Shown here one piece after another: positions 2,886-38,770 of a stretch of 40,062 nt of DNA (the first letter of the stretch is position 1; each line of letters opens with the position of its first letter). This DNA is from a virus (lineage: Duplodnaviria; Heunggongvirae; Uroviricota; Caudoviricetes), in the IMG/VR virus record IMGVR_UViG_2671180458_000005. One strand, written 5' to 3'. The notes under the pieces are model-generated. The model did not search any database and was not told the DNA's origin. It saw nothing but the letters and a program-made list of their open reading frames with translations. A program made the position numbers and the translations under genes.

Positions 2886-3260
2886 ATGAAAAAGGATCTG
2901 AAAACGCTGGCGCTGGCCAGACTGTCAGGGTTTCGTCATAAAACGGTGAAGGTGCCGGAATGGGGTAATGTCAGCGTGGTGCTGCGGGAGCCTTCGGCAG
3001 AGGCCTGGTATCTGTGGCAGGACGTGCTCAATGGTGATGGAGAGGATGATGATACCCTGTCGGTGGTGGCGAAAACCCGCCGTAACCTGGAAGCGGATGT
3101 GACGCTGTTCTGCGATGTCCTGTGTGATACGGATCTGCAACGGGTGTTCACTCCGGACGACCGTGAGCAGGTGCTGGCCGTCTATGGTCCGGTACATGCC
3201 CGCTTGCTGCGTCAGGCACTGGAACTGATCGCTGATGCAGAGTCGGTCAGAAAAAAGTAG
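2886..3260 (+). CDS. Tail assembly chaperone (lambda G analogue)
   Basis: Start at ATG 2886 behind AAGGGGA; ends in slippery heptamer followed by stop; immediately precedes tape measure. Confidence 0.65.
   Translation: MKKDLKTLALARLSGFRHKTVKVPEWGNVSVVLREPSAEAWYLWQDVLNGDGEDDDTLSVVAKTRRNLEADVTLFCDVLCDTDLQRVFTPDDREQVLAVYGPVHARLLRQALELIADAESVRKK
3251..3257 (+). promoter_or_regulatory. A_AAA_AAG slippery heptamer for programmed -1 ribosomal frameshift
   Basis: Heptamer AAAAAAG in zero frame of the G-like ORF, one codon before its stop; the -1 frame is open from here through the ATG of the 3284..3565 ORF. Confidence 0.65.
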
Positions 3261-3565
3261 CCCGCCCGGAAATTCGCTTTCTGATGCGACTTGCGCTCCG
3301 TCTGGGGCGCACCTTATCCGAACTGCGGCACAGCCTGAGTGCGAGCGAGGCGATGATGTGGATGGAGTTCGACAGGATATCCCCGCTGGGTGATGAGCGC
3401 GGGGATATCCGTAATGCACAGATCGTGAAAGCGGTTTTCGGGGCACAGGGGATGAATGTTGCACTGAAGGACGCCATGCTCTGCTGGGGCGAGGATGAGG
3501 ATAAGCCGGAGGTGGATCCGTTTGCGGCGCTGGAACACGCGCTGAGCTTTGCAGCACAGTCATGA
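3257..3565 (+). CDS. Frameshift extension of tail assembly chaperone (G-T fusion C-terminal part)
   Basis: -1 frame relative to G is open from 3257 to stop at 3565; conserved G/GT arrangement upstream of tape measure in long-tailed phages. Confidence 0.6.
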   Translation, partial: VARPEIRFLMRLALRLGRTLSELRHSLSASEAMMWMEFDRISPLGDERGDIRNAQIVKAVFGAQGMNVALKDAMLCWGEDEDKPEVDPFAALEHALSFAAQS

Positions 3566-3612
3566 ATGATGAGAACCGCTGAGGCGGTTTTTTTACGCCC
3601 GGAGAAAGGTGA

Positions 3613-6600
3613 ATGGCGACGTTACGTGAACTGATTATCAAAATTTCGGCAAATTCACAGTCATTCCAGTCGGAGATCCAGCGGGCGTCCCGTATGGGCA
3701 GTGAATATTACCGGACCCTGCAGAATGGCGGACGTCAGGCTGCTGCGGCAGCCAGGGAGCAGCGCCGGGCTCTGGCTGAGCTGAACAGCCAGTTGACGGA
3801 AATCCGCGCTTCGGCTGTCGGAATGACCGGTGCGTTTGCCGGTGCCTTTGCCACCGGACACCTGATTTCGCTGGCGGATGAATGGAGCTCCGTGAATGCC
3901 CGTCTGAAACAGGCGTCGCAGTCATCGGATGAATTTTCGTCATCACAGAAAGTGCTGATGGACATCAGCCAGCGGACAGGCACCGCATTTTCGGATAATG
4001 CGGCCCTGTTTGCCCGTTCGGCTGCCTCGATGCGTGAATATGGTTACAGTGCTGATGATGTGCTGAAGGTGACGGAGGCCATTTCGACAGGGCTGAAAAT
4101 TTCCGGTGCCAGTGCGGCAGAGGCGGGTTCGGTGATCACCCAGTTCAGCCAGGCGCTGGCACAGGGGGTGTTGCGCGGCGAGGAATTTAATTCGGTCAAT
4201 GAAAGTGGGGACCGGATCATTCGCGCACTGGCTGCAGGCATGGGCGTGGCCCGTAAGGATCTGAAGGCGATGGCGGACGATGGTCAACTGACGGCGGATA
4301 AAGTCGTTCCCGCGTTAATCAGCCAGCTGGGGATATTGCGTGATGAATATGCAGCCATGCCGGAAACGGTGTCTGACGGGATCACGAAGGTGGAAAACGC
4401 CTTTATGGCCTGGGTGGGCGGCGCGAATGAGGCCAGCGGAGCGACGAAAACGCTCTCCGGCGCACTGAACGGTGTGGCCGGAAATATTGATACCGTGGCA
4501 ACAGCTGCGGGTGTGCTGGTTGCTGTCGGGGTGGCCCGGTACTTTGGTAATCTGGCTTCCGGAGCGATGTCTGCCACGGCAGGACTTGTGACCGCTGCAC
4601 GTAATGAAGTGGCACTGGCTGAGGCCCAGTTAAGGGGAACGCAGATTGCCACGGCGCGGGCAAGGGCAGCCGTGTACCGGGCTCAGCAGGCTGTGGCGGC
4701 AGCCCGCGGGACTGAGATGCAGATTGCGGCAGAGGCCCGTCTGGCGGTCACACAGGAACGCCTGAACAGAAATATTGCTGCCAGAACCGCCGCCCAGAAT
4801 GCGCTGAACAGTACAACGGCGGTGGGCTCACGTCTGATGAGCGGTGCGCTGGGACTGGTTGGAGGCGTACCCGGACTGGTGATGCTGGGAGCTGCCGCAT
4901 GGTATACGCTGTACCAGAATCAGGAACAGGCCAGGGAGTCTGCGCACCAGTATGCACTGACGATTGATGAAATCGCGCATAAAACGCCATCAATGTCTCT
5001 GCCTGAAGCCTCAGATAATGAAGGGCGAACACGGGAGGCGCTGACAGAGCAGAACCGGCTGATTGATGAGCAGGCCAGCCGGGTGAAATCCCTGCAGGAA
5101 AAAATCGCCGGGTATCAGTATGTGCTGGCTAATCCGGGCTGGACGACCGGTAACGGCTTCATGATAAACCATCTGACATCGGTGAAAACTGTAACGGAAG
5201 GGCTTGCTCAGGCAACAGAGCAGTTTGCTGTTGAGCAGTCCCGTCTGGCACAGATGCAGGAAAAAGCGCAGTCCATTCAGGATGTGCTTGCCGGACTGGA
5301 AGAGCGCCGTGTTGTGTTAATTCGTCAGCAGGCGGCAGAGCAGAATAAAGCGTATCAGTCACTGCTGATCATGAACGGTCAGCATACGGAATTCAACCGC
5401 CTGCTGGGGCTGGGTAATGAACTGCTGCAACAGCGTCAGGGACTGGCGAGTGTACCGCTGCGACTGCCACAGGCCACTCTGGATGATAAACAGCAGGGCG
5501 CCCTGAATAACACAGAGCGTCAACTTGCCCTGTCCCGGCTGAAAGGGGAAGAAAAAGAGCGTGCCCGGCTGGGGTATGCGGCGGATGACCTTGGTCTGGT
5601 GGGGGATACGTATCAGGAGGCGAGGCAGCGTTACATCCGTAATTCGATGGAAGCCTGGCGCAATAATGAGGCGAATAAACCCAAATCCCGGGCCGGAAAA
5701 TCAGGGGCGGAAAAAGCGGAAGACAGTTTTTCCCGTCTGCTGAAGCAGCAGAAGGAACAACTGGCACTGGCCGGGAAGAATACAGAACTGGCAAAACTGA
5801 AATACCAGACCTCGCAGGGCGAGCTGAAAACCCTGACGGAGATACAGAAGCAGGAGCTGCTGCGCAATGCAGCCCTGATTGACCAGAAGAAAATTCGGGA
5901 GCAGTTACGGGCCCGGGAGGAGACCCTGAAAAATGATAATGCAGACGCAAGGGCATCAAATGACGCTGAGCTGCTGGGGTACGGGCAGGGTGAGCGGGTC
6001 CGTGAACGGATGCGGGAGCTGCAGCAGATTCGTGACGGCTACCGCCAGAAGGATGCGGACCTGCAGTCTCAGTATCAGACAGGGGATATCAGTGAGGATT
6101 TTTACAGACAGGCGCTGGCGCAGAATGCGCAGTATCTGAGTGAACGCCTTAAAGACCAGGAGGCTTTTTATGCCGAATCGGATGCGCAGCGTGCTGACTG
6201 GCAGAAAGGGCTGCAGGAAGGGCTAAGTAACTGGGTGGACAGCGCATCAGATTACGCTTCACAGGCAGCACAGCTTGCGACAGACGGTATCTCAGGGATG
6301 GTGAATAACATCACGGAGATGCTGAACGGAAATAAAGTGGAATGGCGCAGCTGGGCTGCATCAATCCTGCAGGAAATATCAAAAGTTCTTATGAATGCGG
6401 CCATTGTCAACGGCATTAAGATGGCGGCAAACAGTATGTCCGGTGCAGGAGGATTTTTCGGCAGTATAGGCAACTGGCTGGGTGGCGCGGTGGCAAATGC
6501 AAAAGGCGGCGTTTATACCTCGGCAAACCTGAGTGCATACAGTAACAGTATTGTGGACACGCCCACGTACTTTGCCTTTGCAAAAGGGGCAGGGCTGATG

Positions 6601-24891: not shown

Positions 24892-25449
24892 TCAACAATG
24901 AATTTTTAGTAATTGCTCCACAGTCATATTTTTAATTGCGCTCCGGTTTACAAGAGTCCAGCCTTGTTTCTCCAGATAAAACTGGAAGGTATCCAGGGTG
25001 CAGACCATTGCGCCGTCCGGAACGGTTTCAGTGAATTTGATATTGCCGTGTTCGTCGAGACGGATAACCAGGGTACGTCCGTCCCCGTGAATCATTTTGT
25101 CGGGAGACGGGGCGTTATTCTGGCGCAGTTCTTTCTCCATGCGATCGAACTCAGCGATGTAGGCTTCTTTAAATGCAGCGGCTTTTTTGCCGGTGAAGCC
25201 CATCACCAGGAAAACGAAGCCGTTTTTGGTGATTTGGTACATTGGGAGTTTGCGACTGGTTGAGTCGGTATATTCGCTCGACACAAAATTGTGCTCAGTG
25301 AATTTTGCTGAACAGTCCAGATTGCGAATTTTATCCAACACTCGTTCGTGGCGTTTACCAAAGAACTCAGCGATCGCAATAGACGTAGTGACAGCGCGTC
25401 CATTTTCGATGGTTACGTCAGGGTGAGAAAGGGCAGGGATAGTAGCCAT
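24892..25449 (-). CDS. Rha-family phage regulatory protein
   Basis: Motifs FFGKRHERVLDKIRNL and PMYQITKNGFVFLVMGFTGKKAAAFKEAYIAEFDRME fit Rha family; start set at internal ATG 25449 (GAGG upstream); the longer ORF to 25746 crosses a hairpin plus T-run, so the true start is uncertain. Confidence 0.6.
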   Translation of the reverse strand: MATIPALSHPDVTIENGRAVTTSIAIAEFFGKRHERVLDKIRNLDCSAKFTEHNFVSSEYTDSTSRKLPMYQITKNGFVFLVMGFTGKKAAAFKEAYIAEFDRMEKELRQNNAPSPDKMIHGDGRTLVIRLDEHGNIKFTETVPDGAMVCTLDTFQFYLEKQGWTLVNRSAIKNMTVEQLLKIHC

Positions 25450-25929
25450 GATGGCAGCCTCGATAGTCAGTTTAAATAACTCACCACCAAGGCTTTCCAC
25501 GACCATAAGGGTGGTGAGACGTACAGGGGTGGAAATACCGGTGACTACCGAAACCGGCCAGCCTTTCGGCTGCCCTGCACGCCCCACCATAATCTGAATG
25601 TGGCTGTGCATTACGCATAAAAAAACCGCCTGAGCGCGGTTATGCGCAGTAGTCATCATCGGGTTTCCACGCCCGGCACCCGCTTTATGAGGTGCAGGTG
25701 CACTATAATTCCACCCATTCTGGTTTTCAATAGCTACATTCAACATTTTCTCTTACCCTTCATCACCGAAGTGAACTTTGTTGATGCAGTGCCTGGTGCC
25801 TCCAGGTGACGTTAACCAGTTAACAATTAACGCCGGATTGTTAGTTGATGTCTGTTACGCCAGTAAAAGACCGCTTGTTTTAACTGTTCCGCGTGCGCTT
25901 AGCCGCATTCACCGCATCACAAAATTCAC

Positions 25930-25992
25930 TTTAAAAAGGGTGGCAGAGCAGTCACGGAGTAGAACTGATGCCACCAAAGACTACACATGGGT
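25930..25992 (-). ncRNA. dicF: DicF-like small RNA
   Basis: Minus strand reads ...UCAGUUCUACUCCGUGACUGCUCUGCCACCCUUUUU, near-identical to the 3-prime two-thirds of E. coli DicF as recalled, including terminator hairpin and U-run; downstream flank also matches; 5-prime end less conserved and not mapped. Confidence 0.65.
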
Positions 25993-26241
25993 ATTGTGGC
26001 GGGGCTGTCACTTAATCGTATGGTCAACCTGACAACCCGGTGCATTTTCTGGAGCAATGGAGGAAACCCCAGCCATACTTACCGCCGCGCCATTTCGCGG
26101 ATTGCCACAACCGGAAGCGCACGTTCGAAGAAATCTAACGACAAGCCTTCTAAGGGAAAGAGCTTCGCCGTGCGCTTTCGTGTTATACCCTGACTTTTCA
26201 GGGTAAATTAACCAGTGGCAACCTGTTTTTACTGGTGCTAA

Positions 26242-26394
26242 TCAGTTAGTGTTTCTGGCTAACCAGCGACGCGCGCCAGCTTCGGTTTTAAACTTTTTAC
26301 TTTTGGTATACGTCATCGCGGTAAACGTGCCGTCCTGGTTAGGGAACACACCGCATACCAGAGATTCGTTGTTGCCAAGATTGAGCGTATCCAT
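26242..26394 (-). CDS. Hypothetical small protein, first ORF downstream of the leftward promoter
   Basis: 50 aa MDTLNLGNNESLVCGVFPNQDGTFTAMTYTKSKKFKTEAGARRWLARNTN; not in ORF track; no family recognised. Confidence 0.4.
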   Translation of the reverse strand: MDTLNLGNNESLVCGVFPNQDGTFTAMTYTKSKKFKTEAGARRWLARNTN

Positions 26395-26577
26395 GTTGAC
26401 CTCATTTACCCTTAACGCCGGGTCGCGGAACTAAAAACCTGCTGCGCTGTTATACAAAGTGTTCCCGCCGTCATGTTCATACGCCTCGGGCTGGCTACTT
26501 AACCCCTTGCCACTGCCGGGTAACTCGAAGTATTGCCTGGCGTTCTGTGGGGCGGAGTGGGTTGGTGAGTGCAATCT

Positions 26578-26616
26578 ACAATTAAAAACTGTTTTGTGTC
26601 AACAGTTTTTAATTGT
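26578..26616. promoter_or_regulatory. Operator palindrome (OL-like) containing a leftward promoter
   Basis: ACAATTAAAAACTGTT-TTGTGTC-AACAGTTTTTAATTGT; on minus strand a perfect TTGACA -35 sits in the centre with TAGATT about 18 nt downstream; near-identical palindrome at 27612..27650. Confidence 0.65.
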
Positions 26617-26625
26617 GCATTTAAG

Positions 26626-26649
26626 CAAAAAAATCCCTCGAAAGAGGGA
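26626..26649 (-). terminator. Rho-independent terminator after parE-like gene (minus strand)
   Basis: Minus strand TCCCTC-TTTC-GAGGGA followed by TTTTTTT. Confidence 0.65.
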
Positions 26650-26667
26650 GTATGAAAATAGTTCAGC

Positions 26668-26955
26668 TCAGATAGAGAAGGGAAATTGTCGGCGAGCATG
26701 TGTCACGCTTACAATCTCAATGCTTGAAGCAGCTACTCTGTACAGGATTATGTAGTTAGGGTGGGTCACTATCTCTCTCAACCCAGAAACCCGTTCGCTT
26801 GGTGGATATAGGTACGGATGCTCAGATAGAGGTAATACCGATGTTTCAATACGTATTTTAAGTCTACGCGCTGCCGGTGGGTTCTCCTTGGCGATGTAAG
26901 TTATGATCTGACGCAAATCATCGCGAGCAGATGGTAGCCATAAAATGGGCAACAT
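26668..26955 (-). CDS. ParE/RelE-family type II toxin
   Basis: 95 aa; start codon overlaps antitoxin stop by 1 nt; sequence pattern typical of ParE toxins (recalled). Confidence 0.7.
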   Translation of the reverse strand: MLPILWLPSARDDLRQIITYIAKENPPAARRLKIRIETSVLPLSEHPYLYPPSERVSGLREIVTHPNYIILYRVAASSIEIVSVTHARRQFPFSI

Positions 26956-27146
26956 TACTCGCTCCTGTTAGTTACAGCAATTTGAGCAATAAGATTTTCC
27001 ATTTCAGCTATTACCTCGTCATGTGGAATTGCAGGGCGAGGGTCTGCAAGGCTTGACGCTACTTTAGCGCGCAACCATTCGTTGTAACTGTTTTCTTGTT
27101 CGATAGTTTCGAATTCTGAAACTATCGGAGAAAGGGCTGTACTCAT
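26955..27146 (-). CDS. Small antitoxin, PaaA2-like
   Basis: 63 aa MSTALSPIVSEFETIEQENSYNEWLRAKVASSLADPRPAIPHDEV...; size and sequence resemble PaaA2 of the E. coli O157 paaR2-paaA2-parE2 module as recalled; translationally coupled to toxin. Confidence 0.6.
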   Translation of the reverse strand: MSTALSPIVSEFETIEQENSYNEWLRAKVASSLADPRPAIPHDEVIAEMENLIAQIAVTNRSE

Positions 27147-27173
27147 GGCATAACTCCTCTTCTTGTACTGTGG

Positions 27174-27575
27174 TCACGCCCGGCGGCTTTTTTGTGCCGC
27201 CAGCCACCGGGCAATGGTTTCTTCCATTGATTTTTTTTTGTCTTTGATTTCTTGAAGCATTTTTTCTTGGTCCTCCTCAGGGAACGCACTAAAAGCCTGG
27301 AGTAATTCGCGTTGGCGAGGACCAATTTTCATCGTGTTAGGGGTGAACATTTGCTCCCCCTCTTCAGGAGGCAATAAAAACCAATGCAACGGATGCCCTG
27401 TAACCTCAACCAGTTTATCCAAACTTGAGGCTTTAGGTGTAGCCTTACCGCTGACCCATTGTTGAACAGTTTGTTGTGTCACACCAATTCTACGGGCCAG
27501 CTCAGCCTGGCTCCATCCAGTTTCCTGAAGAAGCTTGCTGATTCTGTACATCGATACTTCTAGGGCGCTCATCAT
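27174..27575 (-). CDS. XRE-family HTH repressor (prophage repressor / PaaR-like regulator)
   Basis: HTH segment WSQAELARRIGVTQQTVQQWVSGK; divergent from cro-like gene across an operator palindrome; no LexA-type autocleavage motifs seen; start (MMSALE or MYRIS) uncertain, no SD. Confidence 0.7.
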   Translation of the reverse strand: MMSALEVSMYRISKLLQETGWSQAELARRIGVTQQTVQQWVSGKATPKASSLDKLVEVTGHPLHWFLLPPEEGEQMFTPNTMKIGPRQRELLQAFSAFPEEDQEKMLQEIKDKKKSMEETIARWLAAQKSRRA

Positions 27576-27611
27576 TATTCAATTTTACAGGTAAATACTG
27601 TTAAAAGCATC

Positions 27612-27650
27612 ACAATAAAAAACTGTTGATCGCGTACAGTTTTTTATTGT
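27612..27650. promoter_or_regulatory. Operator palindrome (OR-like) between divergent repressor and cro-like genes
   Basis: ACAATAAAAAACTGT-TGATCGCGT-ACAGTTTTTTATTGT, perfect 15-bp inverted repeat arms. Confidence 0.7.
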
Positions 27651-27683
27651 AGCCTTTGCCTATAGTTTTTAGAGGAGGGCAAA

Positions 27684-27956
27684 ATGCTAGATAGCACTCG
27701 CAAAAAAATTAGGCAGAAATACACTCAGGCTGAAATAGGTCGTTATATGGGGGGCGCTCAACAGACAGTTTGGCAATGGTTTAGCTTTGGCGTTCCCCCA
27801 AAGCAGGTAATTCCGCTATGTCAGCTAATGAAGTGGGAGGTTACCCCGCATGAAATTCGCCCAGACATTTACCCTAATCCGACCGACGGCTTACCTGTCG
27901 AGTATCAGGCTAACACACAACCAGAGGCGGGGGTGATTCATGAAAATCAAGCATGA
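27684..27956 (+). CDS. Cro-like HTH protein, YdaS family
   Basis: 90 aa; GAGGAGGG RBS; HTH with QQTVWQWF; RPDI motif as in Rac YdaS (recalled). Confidence 0.6.
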   Translation: MLDSTRKKIRQKYTQAEIGRYMGGAQQTVWQWFSFGVPPKQVIPLCQLMKWEVTPHEIRPDIYPNPTDGLPVEYQANTQPEAGVIHENQA

Positions 27957-32549: not shown

Positions 32550-32849
32550 TTATAAGAAATCGGTTTCATAACTTTGCCCACCATGATAGATACCGACAAT
32601 AAAGACTTTTCTGCCATCAACGGCAAAAGCAATAATCGTTCTGTGGCGGAAATGAGTTACCCGCATCCCCTGGCGAATATCATCGCGTTTATTGCCCCGA
32701 TGCGGGAATGTAGAAAACCCATCAAGATAATCAAGAAGCGCATTGGCATAATTGTCAGCAATGACGTTCCCTGCTTTCTCCGTTATATATCTGTGCAGGT
32801 TGATTATTTGTTGTTCGGCCTCAGGAGTAATGATGACTTCATATGTCAT
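32550..32849 (-). CDS. parE: ParE-family type II toxin
   Basis: 99 aa; immediately downstream of ParD-like gene on same strand. Confidence 0.7.
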   Translation of the reverse strand: MTYEVIITPEAEQQIINLHRYITEKAGNVIADNYANALLDYLDGFSTFPHRGNKRDDIRQGMRVTHFRHRTIIAFAVDGRKVFIVGIYHGGQSYETDFL

Positions 32850-32854
32850 GCAGA

Positions 32855-33112
32855 TTACTTCCCGGATCGAATCGCGGCGCGAACCTGTGAAATGGAGCGT
32901 CCGTTGTTTGGGTTTTCGCGGATAGAATCAAGAGAGGGGGCGGCTGAATGCGTTAACCACGCTTCGATTGCTTTATCGCGCTCATTCAGTGCGCGAAGCC
33001 CTTCACGAATGACCTCGCTTTCTGAAGCATAGGCACCGGAAGCCACACGGGCGCGCACCATGTCAGCCATCTCGTTAGTTAATGTAATGCTGAATTGTTG
33101 GGTTGTACGCAT
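32855..33112 (-). CDS. parD: ParD-family (RHH) antitoxin
   Basis: Start at ATG 33112 (MRTTQQFSITLTNEMADMVRARV...), GAGG upstream. Confidence 0.65.
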   Translation of the reverse strand: MRTTQQFSITLTNEMADMVRARVASGAYASESEVIREGLRALNERDKAIEAWLTHSAAPSLDSIRENPNNGRSISQVRAAIRSGK

Positions 33113-33247
33113 GGTAAACCTCACGGAGTAGGATAGAACACTATTCGATGATAGCACGCTGCCTGTTGACGACAACAGAAATCAGAGACAATATTGCCGC
33201 ACGCCAGCCTGAACAACTGGCACCTGCTGCGCCAGCAGAGACAACCG

Positions 33248-33526
33248 ATGGCGCAAGATACCAAATTACACAATTCGGATAACTCCGCCGCCCCTGCCAG
33301 CAGGCACGGGCGGCGTTCTCATGCATTCAAATCTGACTGGTTCCAGCATGACCCATGCACTGAAGAACAGGCCGAATGGCTGATCCAGTGCTACCGCAGA
33401 CGTGGTTACGAGTTTCAGAAAGATCTCAGCTTCGATCGTCGTCACTGGATAATCTCCGTCAGGCTCCCTTATTCCGAACGCCCACCGCGTCCGTCCCGCA
33501 CATTCCAGCAGCGTATCTGGAGGTAA
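33248..33526 (+). CDS. Hypothetical protein
   Basis: ORF ends 1 nt before the GTG start of the next gene; start uncertain (TTG 33194 or ATG 33248). Confidence 0.35.
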   Translation: MAQDTKLHNSDNSAAPASRHGRRSHAFKSDWFQHDPCTEEQAEWLIQCYRRRGYEFQKDLSFDRRHWIISVRLPYSERPPRPSRTFQQRIWR

Positions 33527-37455: not shown

Positions 37456-37531
37456 GGCCCTTTAGCTCAGTGGTGAGAGCGAGCGACTCATAATCGCCAG
37501 GTCGCTGGTTCAAATCCAGCAAGGGCCACCA
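37456..37531 (+). tRNA. tRNA with CAU anticodon (Ile2-lysidine type or Met), ileZ-like
   Basis: 76 nt; acceptor GGCCCTT/AAGGGCC; anticodon loop CTCATAA; T-loop GGTTCAAATCC; ends CCA. Confidence 0.8.
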
Positions 37532-37540
37532 TATCACATA

Positions 37541-37617
37541 CCGCCATTAGCTCATCGGGATAGAGCGTCAGCCTTCGAAGCTGGTTGCGCGGGGTTCGAG
37601 TCCTCGATGGCGGTCCA
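37541..37617 (+). tRNA. tRNA-Arg (anticodon UCG), argN-like
   Basis: 77 nt; acceptor CCGCCAT/ATGGCGG; anticodon loop CTTCGAA; GGTTCGAGTCC T-arm; ends CCA. Confidence 0.7.
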
Positions 37618-37630
37618 TTATCGGTATTCA

Positions 37631-37707
37631 GCGTTGTTAGCTCAGCCGGACAGAGCAATTGCCTTCTAAGCAATCGGTCACTGGTTCGAATCCAGTACAA
37701 CGCGCCA
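37631..37707 (+). tRNA. tRNA-Arg (anticodon UCU), argO-like
   Basis: 77 nt; acceptor GCGTTGT/ACAACGC; anticodon loop CTTCTAA; GGTTCGAATCC T-arm; ends CCA. Confidence 0.8.
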
Positions 37708-37721
37708 TATTTATTTACCAG

Positions 37722-37746
37722 GCTCGCTTTTGCGGGCCTTTTTTGT
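37722..37746 (+). terminator. Possible terminator after tRNA cluster
   Basis: GGCTCGC-TTTT-GCGGGCC imperfect hairpin followed by TTTTTT. Confidence 0.45.
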
Positions 37747-37876
37747 ATCCGCGCCACGCCCGGCGCATATCAACCACAGAGCCTTTCGGGGGTGAGCTTA
37801 CGGAGTGGTCAGTGTGACTTTCTCTGTGGGCAGATCGCTCCCGGGCGTTGGCTCACCCACCTAAAGGAACGTCACG

Positions 37877-38308
37877 ATGTTTGGTATTTTCAAAAAGAAA
37901 ACCCGCAGAGCAGCAGCGGAAATTAAAAAGTTTGAGAAACGTGATCTGGCACAGGCGGTTATTAATGCTGCCTACCTGGTAGCCTATGCAGATGGTGAAT
38001 GTGAGGCTTCAGAGAAAGCGAAGATCGAGCAGGTCTTGCGTAACCAGCCAGCGTTGTCCGCGTTTACGTCAGAAATTAATGCTATCAGTGCCACGATCAC
38101 AGGTCAGCTTGACACCAACTTTAAAATTGGTCGTCGAGCGGCGTTGCGTGAAATTGAAGATGTGAAACACGATACGCGTGAAGCGGAAGATGTGCTGGAT
38201 GTGGCGGTGGCCATTGCTGAAGCAGATGGTGAAATTGAGCCGGAAGAGCGTAAGGTTCTGGAAGAGATTGCTGGTGTTCTTGGCCTGCGACTGGAGAACC
38301 ACCTGTGA
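37877..38308 (+). CDS. TerB-like domain protein
   Basis: 143 aa; two AxADGE motifs (AYADGECEASEKAKI and AEADGEIEPEERKVLEEI) typical of TerB fold; AAAGGA RBS. Confidence 0.6.
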   Translation: MFGIFKKKTRRAAAEIKKFEKRDLAQAVINAAYLVAYADGECEASEKAKIEQVLRNQPALSAFTSEINAISATITGQLDTNFKIGRRAALREIEDVKHDTREAEDVLDVAVAIAEADGEIEPEERKVLEEIAGVLGLRLENHL

Positions 38309-38469
38309 CGGTAAAACTGCGTCTGGCCGCTGTGGCACTCCTGCTGTTTCTGGTGGTGATGGTGGATTTCACCAGCAGGATCATGTCGGTGCTGGCGGAT
38401 GGAGTGCTGGTGGTCGGTATTGTGGTGGTGCTTTTTCCTTTGGTGAAAAAGGACATGCCAGGTAGTTAG
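38305..38469 (+). CDS. Small hydrophobic membrane protein, translationally coupled to TerB-like gene
   Basis: 54 aa VTVKLRLAAVALLLFLVVMVDFTSRIMSVLADGVLVVGIVVVLFPLVKKDMPGS; GTGA overlap; not in ORF track. Confidence 0.45.
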   Translation: MTVKLRLAAVALLLFLVVMVDFTSRIMSVLADGVLVVGIVVVLFPLVKKDMPGS

Positions 38470-38717
38470 CCGGGTATCAGTCATGCCCCGAAAATTTTAA
38501 ATGTCTCACAATTCAGACGGTTGACAGTTGTCTGTTTTGCGGGGAGTTTGTTAAAAGAAACAGGCATGGTGAATCCCCCTGAGCGGAGGGGCGACTGGTG
38601 CATTAGGTGTTATCTTTGATACCCAGGAAAGTAAACGCGCGGGTTTGGTGGCACCGGGCTGAACTCACCGGGAGGCACCCGGCATCATGCGCATGATGAT
38701 ACAGATACGCGGCTTTA

Positions 38718-38741
38718 GCCCCTCTCCGGAGGGGCTTTTAT
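38718..38741 (+). terminator. Rho-independent terminator
   Basis: GCCCCTC-TCCG-GAGGGGC followed by TTTTATAT. Confidence 0.6.
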
Positions 38742-38770
38742 ATGAATTTTGTAAGATATGAGTAAACTAA

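Follow-up and report, generated by a model that had tools for sequence, protein, structure and literature searches.

A sequence-based model of a PaaA/ParE-carrying immunity region in a lambdoid Escherichia coli phage

Introduction

What is the function of a toxin-antitoxin (TA) pair that lies directly behind a repressor gene, between two near-identical palindromes of a phage genome? The question is raised by positions 26578-27650 of the IMG/VR virus record IMGVR_UViG_2671180458_000005, a Caudoviricetes stretch of 40,062 nt which, at its full length, is referred to here as the window. An earlier note, made from the letters alone, had read this locus as an immunity region in which the repressor is followed by a PaaA2/ParE-like pair in the position of lambda rexAB, one regulator probably controlling both palindromes. 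The computational follow-up described here leads to a similar answer: the region very probably decides between lysis and lysogeny in a lambdoid E. coli phage, as a switch of the DicA/PaaR type in which a repressor-operator system, with its left (OL) and right (OR) operators, carries the TA pair as a passenger. The gene identities, the positions of the sites and their conservation, as well as the domain mosaic of the repressor, were established directly.

A related system has been described. The paaR2-paaA2-parE2 genes of the cryptic prophage CP-933P of E. coli O157:H7 sit in the immunity region of that prophage (Jurenas 2021, PMC8630535), where PaaR2 plays the part of CI; its message is leaderless and starts at the A of the ATG, and the N-terminus of the protein has been sequenced. 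Footprints on the 97-bp intergenic region of CP-933P were obtained with PaaR2 and with the Cro-like YdaS, and both proteins repress its promoters PRM, PR and, beyond the TA genes, PL; moreover, PRM is activated about four-fold at low PaaR2, PaaR2 forms octamers, YdaT activates a PRE-like promoter, and the locus is addictive on a plasmid, which it stabilises (PMC8630535). The YdaT site, TTGATT-N6-AATCAA, has been mapped and footprinted at the CP-933P ydaS/ydaT junction (Prolic-Kalinsek 2023, PMC9986795).

Gene content of the region

The two 39-nt palindromes, at 26578-26616 and 27612-27650, enclose the genes of the repressor, the PaaA antitoxin and the ParE toxin, together with a terminator; ydaS and ydaT diverge from the repressor:

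27174-27575, minus strand: gene of a CI-type repressor of 133 amino acids, from the list of open reading frames (ORFs), with a helix-turn-helix (HTH) and a PaaR2/DicA-like C-terminal domain
26955-27146, minus strand: paaA, antitoxin of 63 amino acids (Pfam PF21217 PaaA2, 6.6e-21, above cut-off; PDB 3zbe, 1.4e-23)
26668-26955, minus strand: parE, toxin of 95 amino acids (Pfam ParE_toxin, 2.6e-17; PDB ParE2 5cw7_B, 1.1e-36)
26624-26649, minus strand: intrinsic terminator of the repressor-paaA-parE transcript, stem TCCCTC/GAGGGA plus seven T, found as a hairpin with T-run (26649-26634)
27684-27956, plus strand: ydaS, Cro-like regulator of 90 amino acids (Pfam YdaS_toxin, 3.2e-08; PHROG 35), the role being assigned by analogy (PMC8630535)
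27940-28365, plus strand: ydaT, CII-like regulator of 141 amino acids (PDB 8bt1, 1.2e-76; 84% to the CP-933P YdaT in global alignment)

The stop codon of paaA and the start codon of parE overlap by 1 nt (TAATG), the two genes being translationally coupled. The composition that the earlier note had given for the enclosed segment (repressor, 63-residue antitoxin, 95-residue ParE with 1-nt coupling, terminator) is therefore borne out by the ORFs, the TAATG and the hairpin with its T-run, and the family assignment of the pair by the Pfam and PDB matches and by identities of 68% (PaaA to PaaA2) and 66% (ParE to ParE2). In related loci of E. coli and Salmonella, OL is likewise preceded by a stem and T-run equivalent to the terminator.

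At least four types of repressor N-terminal domain were distinguished in a set of 80 loci encoding ParE2-like toxins, namely A (that of PaaR2), B (that of the window), C and D. Relatives of the type B repressor in other genera are 81% (Salmonella), 75% (Serratia), 68% (Raoultella/Klebsiella) and 69% (Morganella) identical. A profile scan of genome contigs with the repressor alignment gave 5 distant loci, and served for repressors without TA genes, not for statistics.

Operators

The palindrome at 26578-26616 (ACAATTAAAAACTGTTTTGTGTCAACAGTTTTTAATTGT) is composed of ACAATTAAAAACTGT-TTTGTGTCA-ACAGTTTTTAATTGT and that at 27612-27650 (ACAATAAAAAACTGTTGATCGCGTACAGTTTTTTATTGT) of ACAATAAAAAACTGT-TGATCGCGT-ACAGTTTTTTATTGT, both with arms of 15-16 nt which a repeat finder returned as perfectly complementary. 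Aligned as direct copies they agree at 77% of positions, and as an inverted pair they are complementary at 81%; of the 8 local inverted repeats reported for the whole 40-kb window, no others have arms as complementary, and no other two share a sequence. The 15-mer ACAATWAAAAACTGT has four exact matches, all within the two palindromes, and seven matches at up to three mismatches, against 2.3 +/- 1.4 in shuffles, a count of seven being reached in 0 of 100. That two near-identical 39-bp palindromes bracket the region is thus confirmed by the sequence itself, the repeat finder and the shuffle counts.

These elements are better described as adjacent 15-bp sites of the form ACA-N9-TGT, to which no strand is assigned:

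26578-26592: OL operator 1, ACAATTAAAAACTGT, inside the PL spacer; in the minus-strand reading its last T is the first -10 base
26602-26616: OL operator 2, ACAGTTTTTAATTGT, 24 bp centre-to-centre from operator 1 and abutting the PL -35
27587-27601: OR3, ACAGGTAAATACTGT on the plus and ACAGTATTTACCTGT on the minus strand, inside the PRM spacer; it fits ACA-N9-TGT
27612-27626: OR2, ACAATAAAAAACTGT, with the PR -35 directly adjoining one end and the PRM -35 position the other
27636-27650: OR1, ACAGTTTTTTATTGT, inside the PR spacer

The OR sites stand at -75, -51 and -26 from the repressor ATG, with centre spacings of 24-25 bp, as in lambda. The quarter-sites ACA(A/G)T point towards the centre of each 15-mer, which has a dyad of its own, and each 15-mer has the look of a whole operator, bound by a single repressor dimer; OR is then tripartite and OL bipartite. 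The earlier description of 39-bp palindromes built of half-sites was consequently right as to the palindromes, but not as to the unit, and it lacked the third OR site, which was missed because it has three mismatches to the motif then used.

The comparison of genera carries this reading. In E. coli, as well as in the relatives from Salmonella, Raoultella and Morganella, sites of the form ACA-N9-TGT occur at exactly these distances from the ATG (-75, -51 and -26), and Serratia departs from the pattern by single bases; as to the -26 site, E. coli, Salmonella, Serratia and Raoultella agree in its position, and Morganella differs there by one base. Across genera the ACA/TGT ends are retained in 87 of 90 cells, and in pairwise comparisons the operator ends are 93% identical, the spacers, apart from the PR -35, being 36% and 55% identical; the 9-nt centre between operators varies freely, the -35 bases of PR and PL excepted. 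In Raoultella two neighbouring 15-mers are not reverse complements of one another, yet each has ACA...TGT ends, and a lone 15-mer of an Arsenophonus relative (ACAAGATGATCTTGT) is a perfect palindrome by itself; both facts argue for the 15-mer as the unit. Furthermore, an OL-like pair with sites 23-25 bp apart is found in other genera downstream of whatever cargo follows the repressor. The comparison supports the view that the operators travel with the repressor, whatever genes lie between OL and OR, and it agrees with the proposal of one regulator for both elements, since the same sites accompany this repressor family through other genera.

Promoters and the leaderless repressor transcript

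The predicted promoters are set into these operators in a single register:

26573-26602, minus strand: PL-like promoter, -35 TTGACA (26602-26597), 18-nt spacer, -10 TAGATT (26578-26573); 10 of 12 in the promoter scan
27626-27655, plus strand: PR-like promoter, -35 TTGATC (27626-27631), 18-nt spacer, -10 TAGCCT (27650-27655), in exact register with PL
27575-27587, minus strand: PRM-like core, -10 TAAAAT (27587-27582), 6 nt and the repressor ATG; the A at 27575 is the predicted start, and there is no good -35

PL (TTGACA-18-TAGATT) is the best promoter-like match of the region; the perfect leftward -35 reported earlier at the first palindrome is accordingly found, with TAGATT following after 18 nt. 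Its -35 and -10 recur in unchanged register in relatives from E. coli, Salmonella, Raoultella and Morganella, and the PR elements (-35 TTGA(T/C), -10 TA...T) are also conserved across genera. The -10 hexamer of PL, PR and PRM begins on the last T of an operator, which is likewise kept across genera, and the -35 of PL and PR begins on the last T of the neighbouring operator. Leftward of the first palindrome, PL reads into a DUF1391/ydfA-like gene, DicF, the isrK and C4 RNAs, a Rha/Ash gene and then dicB, an exonuclease gene (exo) and the integrase gene (int). Gene order, PL/OL- and PR/OR-like elements and the Cro-like and CII-like neighbours all agree with the immunity-region reading and match the published CP-933P.

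No Shine-Dalgarno sequence is present in the 11 nt upstream of the repressor ATG (AAAATTGAATA); paaA, parE and ydaS each have GAGG or AGGAG 7-8 nt upstream. The arrangement of a -10, 6 nt and the ATG is identical in repressor types A, B and C and in five genera, its type A version being GATAAT-TACCAC-ATG. The leaderless repressor mRNA suggested in the earlier note is supported by analogy, the promoter geometry being identical to that of paaR2, for which a leaderless start was mapped by experiment. The upstream ATG is taken as the start because the residues before the internal Met are conserved and this Met is replaced by Thr in type C.

Two further candidates, an antisense promoter-like match within parE (26686-26715) and a plus-strand terminator-like match within the repressor gene (27212-27229), were at chance level and were dropped.

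The beginning of the PL transcript drew separate attention. Its first ~100 nt (CACCAACCCACYCCGCCCCA...; leader at 26395-26566, minus strand) are 93% conserved with respect to CP-933P despite the different operators, and the leader is recognisable in Salmonella and Morganella too (loci compared: L073, L053, L087, L095, L099 and L002); a spurious 47-residue ORF overlies it. A structured RNA of the put/nut kind is unsupported, because the leader (26395-26566, minus) folds no better than shuffles (z +1.46). Rfam gave no match at E <= 1 in 26200-27700, leader included.

The repressor

Two domains make up the repressor: an HTH of XRE/434-like type (residues ~4-66) and, after a linker, a helical C-terminal domain resembling those of PaaR2 and DicA (~86-132). 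In its AlphaFold model, with a mean predicted local distance difference test score (pLDDT) of 79.6, a five-helix HTH (4-66) is followed by a low-confidence linker and a helix-turn-long-helix C-domain (86-132). A fold search matched the HTH part only, to NHTF, SinR, C proteins, 434 (1pra) and P22 c2, and a sequence search of the PDB gave only generic XRE domains, the best solved relative being the 434 repressor (2e-5). No Peptidase_S24 match was found in the 133 residues. K-12 DicA is related over both domains (BLASTP, 28% over 111 residues, E 3e-12), and the best NCBIfam model is that of DicA (NF007257), spanning residues 11-130 with 52.8 bits against a cut-off of 101. By these features, the protein is one of the short prophage repressors that are not cleaved, as are DicA and GfoR/GtgR; repressors of this class are induced by antirepressors and not by RecA-mediated cleavage (PMC3121763; PMC10448788).

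The sequence of PaaR2 (MQKKE..., 123 amino acids) was recovered from an IMG/VR locus encoding ParE2. Alignment with the window repressor is possible only from residue ~37 (42% over 98 residues, E 7e-21; global identity 34%), the last ~45 residues being about 75% identical. The relation to PaaR2 that the earlier note had raised holds for the C-terminal domain, but the N-domains cannot be aligned; the protein is thus not PaaR2, but PaaR2-like in its C-terminal domain only.

The recognition helix, TQQTVQQ, aligns with TQQSIEQ of the 434 repressor, so that QQ(T)xxQ corresponds to Q28, Q29, S30 and Q33 of 434; the repressor residues Q34, Q35 and Q38 are invariant across the family. In type C, the residue aligned with Gln33 of 434 is Lys, and the operator quarter-site is ACAC. 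According to the co-crystal work on 434 by Anderson, Aggarwal, Harrison and Ptashne, Gln28, Gln29 and Gln33 read ACAA, the operators being ACAA-N6-TTGT. By analogy, a 434-like contact model for the repressor on its 15-bp sites would be reasonable. The recognition helix of YdaS (AQQTVWQW) resembles that of the repressor (TQQTVQQW), and in type A PaaR2 and its YdaS likewise have SYLSQ(L/M)xSGR in common; since the helix pairs are alike in both types, B and A, the recognition helices of repressor and Cro-like protein would match within each immunity type.

As a side observation, Citrobacter braakii (L085, 2641-3393) encodes a 250-residue protein in which an additional N-terminal HTH is fused to a type-B-like repressor.

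The toxin-antitoxin pair as cargo

The loci of Salmonella, Serratia, Raoultella and Morganella keep YdaS, YdaT and the replication genes, with other cargo and no PaaA/ParE. Since other genera have other genes there, and since paaA-parE is found in E. coli with no fewer than four types of repressor N-domain, the TA pair is a swappable passenger in the slot that rexAB occupies in lambda.

The contents of the slot (L087-L095, about 3400-4400) are varied. Salmonella loci have a protein of 112-120 residues that lacks a Pfam match, Raoultella a 133-residue protein plus DUF2767, and Morganella a 143-residue protein; in Serratia the slot spans about 1 kb in which no gene was called. OL/PL comes next in all of them, though not as a strict OL pair in Serratia. 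In Gifsy-type prophages, anti-phage genes lie in the corresponding neighbourhood (PMC12724215).

The TA genes of the window are intact in sequence, with full-length ORFs and a ParE 99% identical to the paralogue of O157:H7 EDL933, and PaaA has no DNA-binding domain. By analogy, the pair most likely makes the immunity region addictive, so that cells losing or replacing it would be poisoned once the labile antitoxin decays. A defence against other phages is also possible, and the proposal that the pair stabilises lysogeny or aborts infection stands as a hypothesis both here and in the literature. That PaaA/ParE, in a complete and possibly inducible phage, is a working part of the switch or a defence, beyond a stabiliser, we regard as rather unlikely. 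One possibility of this kind is that shut-off of PRM frees ParE, which could render the lytic decision irreversible or punish heteroimmune recombinants; another is a RexAB-like abortive infection against incoming phages. If such a role were real, selection by the TA pair would have shaped the points of recombination, with ydaS, OR, the repressor N-domain and OL being swapped while the C-domain and the TA genes stay.

The 5' part of paaA contains a further conserved feature:

27096-27132, minus strand: hairpin of 10 bp (CGAUAGUUUC / GAAACUAUCG) with a 7-nt loop (AGAAUUC), within the paaA coding sequence

The hairpin persists in 17 distinct alleles, with 95.9% of cells paired against 24-47% in slid controls. 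G-C/A-U exchanges occur at two pairs involving third codon positions; all three third positions of the loop vary, and those of the stem are invariant or co-vary. The covariation score was reached by 3 of 500 shuffles. This conservation with compensatory changes is suggestive, few independent events being involved; the hairpin could govern how the mRNA is processed or how much antitoxin is made relative to toxin, or the V-S-E-F-E-T codons may give rise to it as a by-product.

Proposed mechanism

From the sequence we infer DNA binding, transcription starts, activation, looping, toxicity and biological role as follows. A leaderless PRM transcript would encode the short, non-cleavable CI-like repressor, PaaA and ParE, and end at the terminator before OL, the TA pair thus being expressed whenever the prophage is repressed. 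Repressor dimers would bind the 15-bp operators, ACA(A/G)T-N5-A(C/T)TGT, the two OL sites blocking PL, and OR1 and OR2 blocking PR; OR2, which abuts the weak PRM -35, probably activates PRM, and OR3 would shut PRM at high repressor. YdaS, given its near-identical recognition helix, probably competes for the sites of the repressor, and YdaT, at the inverted repeat of the ydaS/ydaT junction, would drive a PRE-like promoter back towards the repressor. Looping between OL and OR over 1034 bp is likely, by analogy, because the C-domain is common with PaaR2, which forms octamers. The YdaT element is the following:

27933-27950, no strand assigned: YdaT-binding-site-like inverted repeat GTGATTCATGAAAATCAA, overlapping the ydaT start codon, with 1 mismatch to TTGATT-N6-AATCAA (a perfect copy lies at the equivalent place in CP-933P)

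Alternative readings

The unit of the operator is the first matter on which another reading deserves consideration. Each 39-bp palindrome might act as one operator, its 15-bp arms being half-sites which a dimer or tetramer occupies together, and OR would have no third site; the E. coli elements are indeed perfect palindromes with arms of 15-16 nt, and the Salmonella and Morganella pair is still nearly palindromic. We hold this improbable, given that the Raoultella 15-mers dispense with mutual complementarity while each retains ACA...TGT, that the lone 15-mer at -26 is conserved in position across genera, and that the 9-nt centre is free to vary except for the -35 bases of PR and PL; besides, ACA(A/G)T points inward in each 15-mer as in 434, whereas the quarter-sites point outward across the centre of the 39-mer. 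The same centres, as CTGT-N9-ACAG, resemble the LexA box CTGT-N8-ACAG, which would turn the palindromes into SOS boxes and place the region under direct LexA control. This is barely credible: conservation is as high at the outer ACA/TGT ends as at the inner ones, both AT-richness and conservation are lacking in the central 9 nt, the spacing is 9 and not 8, and a strict CTGT-N8-ACAG search found none in the immunity region, on which grounds the LexA reading was rejected.

The locus could also be seen primarily as a three-component TA system, in which the HTH protein is the split-off DNA-binding module of the antitoxin and the palindromes are TA operators. Such was the original description of paaR-paaA-parE (Hallez 2010, as recounted in PMC4803016), and the absence of a DNA-binding domain from PaaA (also PMC8630535) fits it. 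We nevertheless judge it highly improbable, as the same repressor and OR/OL layout occurs in Salmonella, Raoultella and Morganella where there is no TA, the second operator pair overlaps the strong outward promoter of dicB/exo/int and not a TA promoter, and the homology of the repressor to DicA, itself a prophage repressor, extends over the full length.

Several points weigh against the lambdoid switch proposed here. Repressor-operator binding is a prediction in this immunity type, and the likeness to 434 is modest (E 2e-5), with operators of 15 and not 14 bp, so that the contact model is an analogy. The consensus scan did not pick up PR (-10 TAGCCT) or PRM (no -35), whose starts are predictions. 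In Serratia, two of the three OR sites depart from ACA-N9-TGT, and the search for a strict OL pair gave none. The repressor lacks an S24 domain, and neither a convincing antirepressor, LexA-controlled or other, nor a convincing LexA box was found in the window. As for the TA pair, PADLOC has no model matching PaaA or ParE, and in CP-933P the activity of ParE2 was undetected in either state of the switch (PMC8630535).

Further features of the window

The window runs from tail genes through int to Q, with int, exo, replication and Q modules present; DnaT-domain and lambda-P-like (O/P-like) replication genes lie 3' of ydaT. No meaningful match was obtained for YdaS among solved structures. In the nearest E. 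coli genome (99.1% over 2.2 kb) the same immunity region lies inside an Stx2b prophage at tRNA-Ser. The slot of stx2b in this closest prophage (L001) is filled differently in the window (37456-38747), where it comes behind Q and three tRNAs (Met, Arg, Arg) and contains a 143-residue TerB-domain ORF (37877-38308), with an STnc100 small RNA match (38535-38747) next.

The PL operon has a row of Rfam RNAs on the minus strand, namely DicF (25938-25989), isrK (25619-25695) and C4 antisense RNA (25507-25594). The isrK and C4 RNAs lie inside the 5' part of a 284-residue Ash+Rha ORF (24892-25746), which also matches anti-repressor PHROGs; the arrangement resembles the c4-ant modules of P1/P7 and the isrK module of Gifsy-1, set in a dicB-type operon.

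A second TA pair is located on the minus strand of the nin-like region (32550-33178), with parD at 32855-33112/33175 and parE at 32550-32849. The perfect palindrome CTGTTGACGACAACAG (33163-33178), ~50 nt upstream of parD, fits LexA CTGT-N8-ACAG and could equally be a ParD operator. A 92-residue ORF of unknown function (33248-33526, phrog_1212) diverges from it; this ORF was considered as a LexA-controlled antirepressor and no claim is made, since PHROGs lists it under 'unknown function' and the adjoining palindrome may equally be a ParD operator.

Significance

A repressor with PaaA/ParE in the rexAB slot was already published, and the present finding mainly shows that such a locus can be recognised from sequence alone. 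The operator architecture and the domain mosaic appear to be undescribed for this immunity type in the literature searched, and they follow the familiar logic of lambda and 434. What is added is a sequence-level model of a second, common immunity type, with operators of 15 bp, three of them at OR and two at OL, one promoter register common to PL, PR and PRM, and a repressor mosaic in which a swappable 434-like DNA-binding domain is joined to the common PaaR/DicA oligomerisation domain. Moreover, evidence is provided that the TA pair is one of several alternative cargos of the slot, and the sites are given at which the action of the TA module can be tested in a live rather than a cryptic phage.

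Relation to known systems

CP-933P is a closely related described system, with which the window has in common the order and orientation of the genes, the antitoxin and toxin families, the repressor C-domain, the YdaT site on the ydaS/ydaT junction, the arrangement of -10, 6 nt and ATG that predicts a leaderless message, and OL/PL past the TA terminator. The repressor N-terminal DNA-binding domain, YdaS and all operators, in contrast, are unrelated: those of CP-933P are 18-bp palindromes of half-site GTTTAGTAA, four at OR and three at OL, against three and two 15-bp sites in the window, and neither this N-domain nor this specificity is found in the window repressor. At the DNA level, identity is 90% in ydaT, homology is lost from ydaS through OR to repressor codon ~87, 68% is reached from the C-domain (codon ~88) through paaA and parE, and no homology at OL is followed by 93% beyond PL. 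By sequence, this is the classical heteroimmune lambdoid picture, with specificity cassettes exchanged and flanks in common, and the locus is a heteroimmune relative of the PaaR2 system, of a different immunity type. CP-933P is, furthermore, cryptic, whereas the window has tail, int, exo, replication and Q modules.

The type B repressor and OR segment is present in 510 of 5426 complete E. coli genomes, O157:H7 and the Stx2b prophage included, and a paaA-parE cassette of any type in 833 of the 5426; O157:H7 genomes typically have two paaA-parE places, one of the window type and one of the CP-933P type. In EDL933 the second paa system has a repressor 97%, a PaaA 89%, a ParE 99% and a YdaS 87% identical to those of the window, and the same operators, but its prophage backbone differs, with other replication genes and a YdaT of only 79%. 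Presumably this second system corresponds to paaR1-paaA1-parE1 of Hallez 2010, carried by a CP-933M/Sp4-like prophage. PaaA1 and PaaA2 are reported not to cross-neutralise (PMC4803016).

Some observations on diversity may be added. The repressor N-domain/OR segment (27330-27700) is very uniform, 504 of the 510 E. coli genomes being at 95-99% identity, and the TA/OL segment (26668-27146) falls into classes of 95-99% (178 genomes), 90-95% (263) and 80-90% (75). PaaA is more diverged from EDL933 (89%) than ParE (99%). Type D loci (L062, L050, L061, L065 and L067-L070; about 3000-3840) have two tandem PaaR-like genes upstream of paaA-parE, a PaaR2-like one adjoining OR and a second (MGVLEISALRI...) directly before the TA genes.

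The 434 repressor is the best solved-structure match of the N-domain of the window repressor; common to both systems are a five-helix XRE HTH with Gln-Gln starting helix 3, QQ(S/T)xxQ opening the recognition helix in both repressor and Cro-like protein, and operator ends of ACA(A/G). The differences are that the window sites are 15-bp ACA-N9-TGT, with A or G at position 4, and not 14-bp ACAA-N6-TTGT, and that the C-domain is a short helical hairpin and not a LexA-like protease domain; the sequence thus indicates resemblance to 434, not membership in its immunity type. The length of 14 bp for the 434 operator site is taken from PMC1636474.

The DicA (Qin), GfoR/GtgR (Gifsy) and RacR (Rac) repressors are alike in size, about 135 residues, and in having an HTH and a helical C-domain, and the left operon, with DUF1391/ydfA, DicF and dicB, is of the dicB type. 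The score of the window repressor lies, however, under the DicA family cut-off, RacR is barely similar, and in Qin nothing stands between dicA and the dicB promoter, where the window has the TA pair inserted.

Compared with lambda, the TA genes 3' of the repressor, PaaA and ParE, are unrelated in sequence to RexA/RexB, the repressor has no S24 autocleavage domain, OL has two sites and not three, and no N gene was seen in the window between PL and the dicB-type operon. The likeness lies in the plan of cI-rexA-rexB: repressor and passenger genes on a predicted leaderless PRM transcript between OL and OR, a tripartite OR with centre spacings of 24-25 bp, cro- and cII-type genes diverging from the repressor, and what would be the same logic of occlusion, activation and autorepression (PMC8630535).

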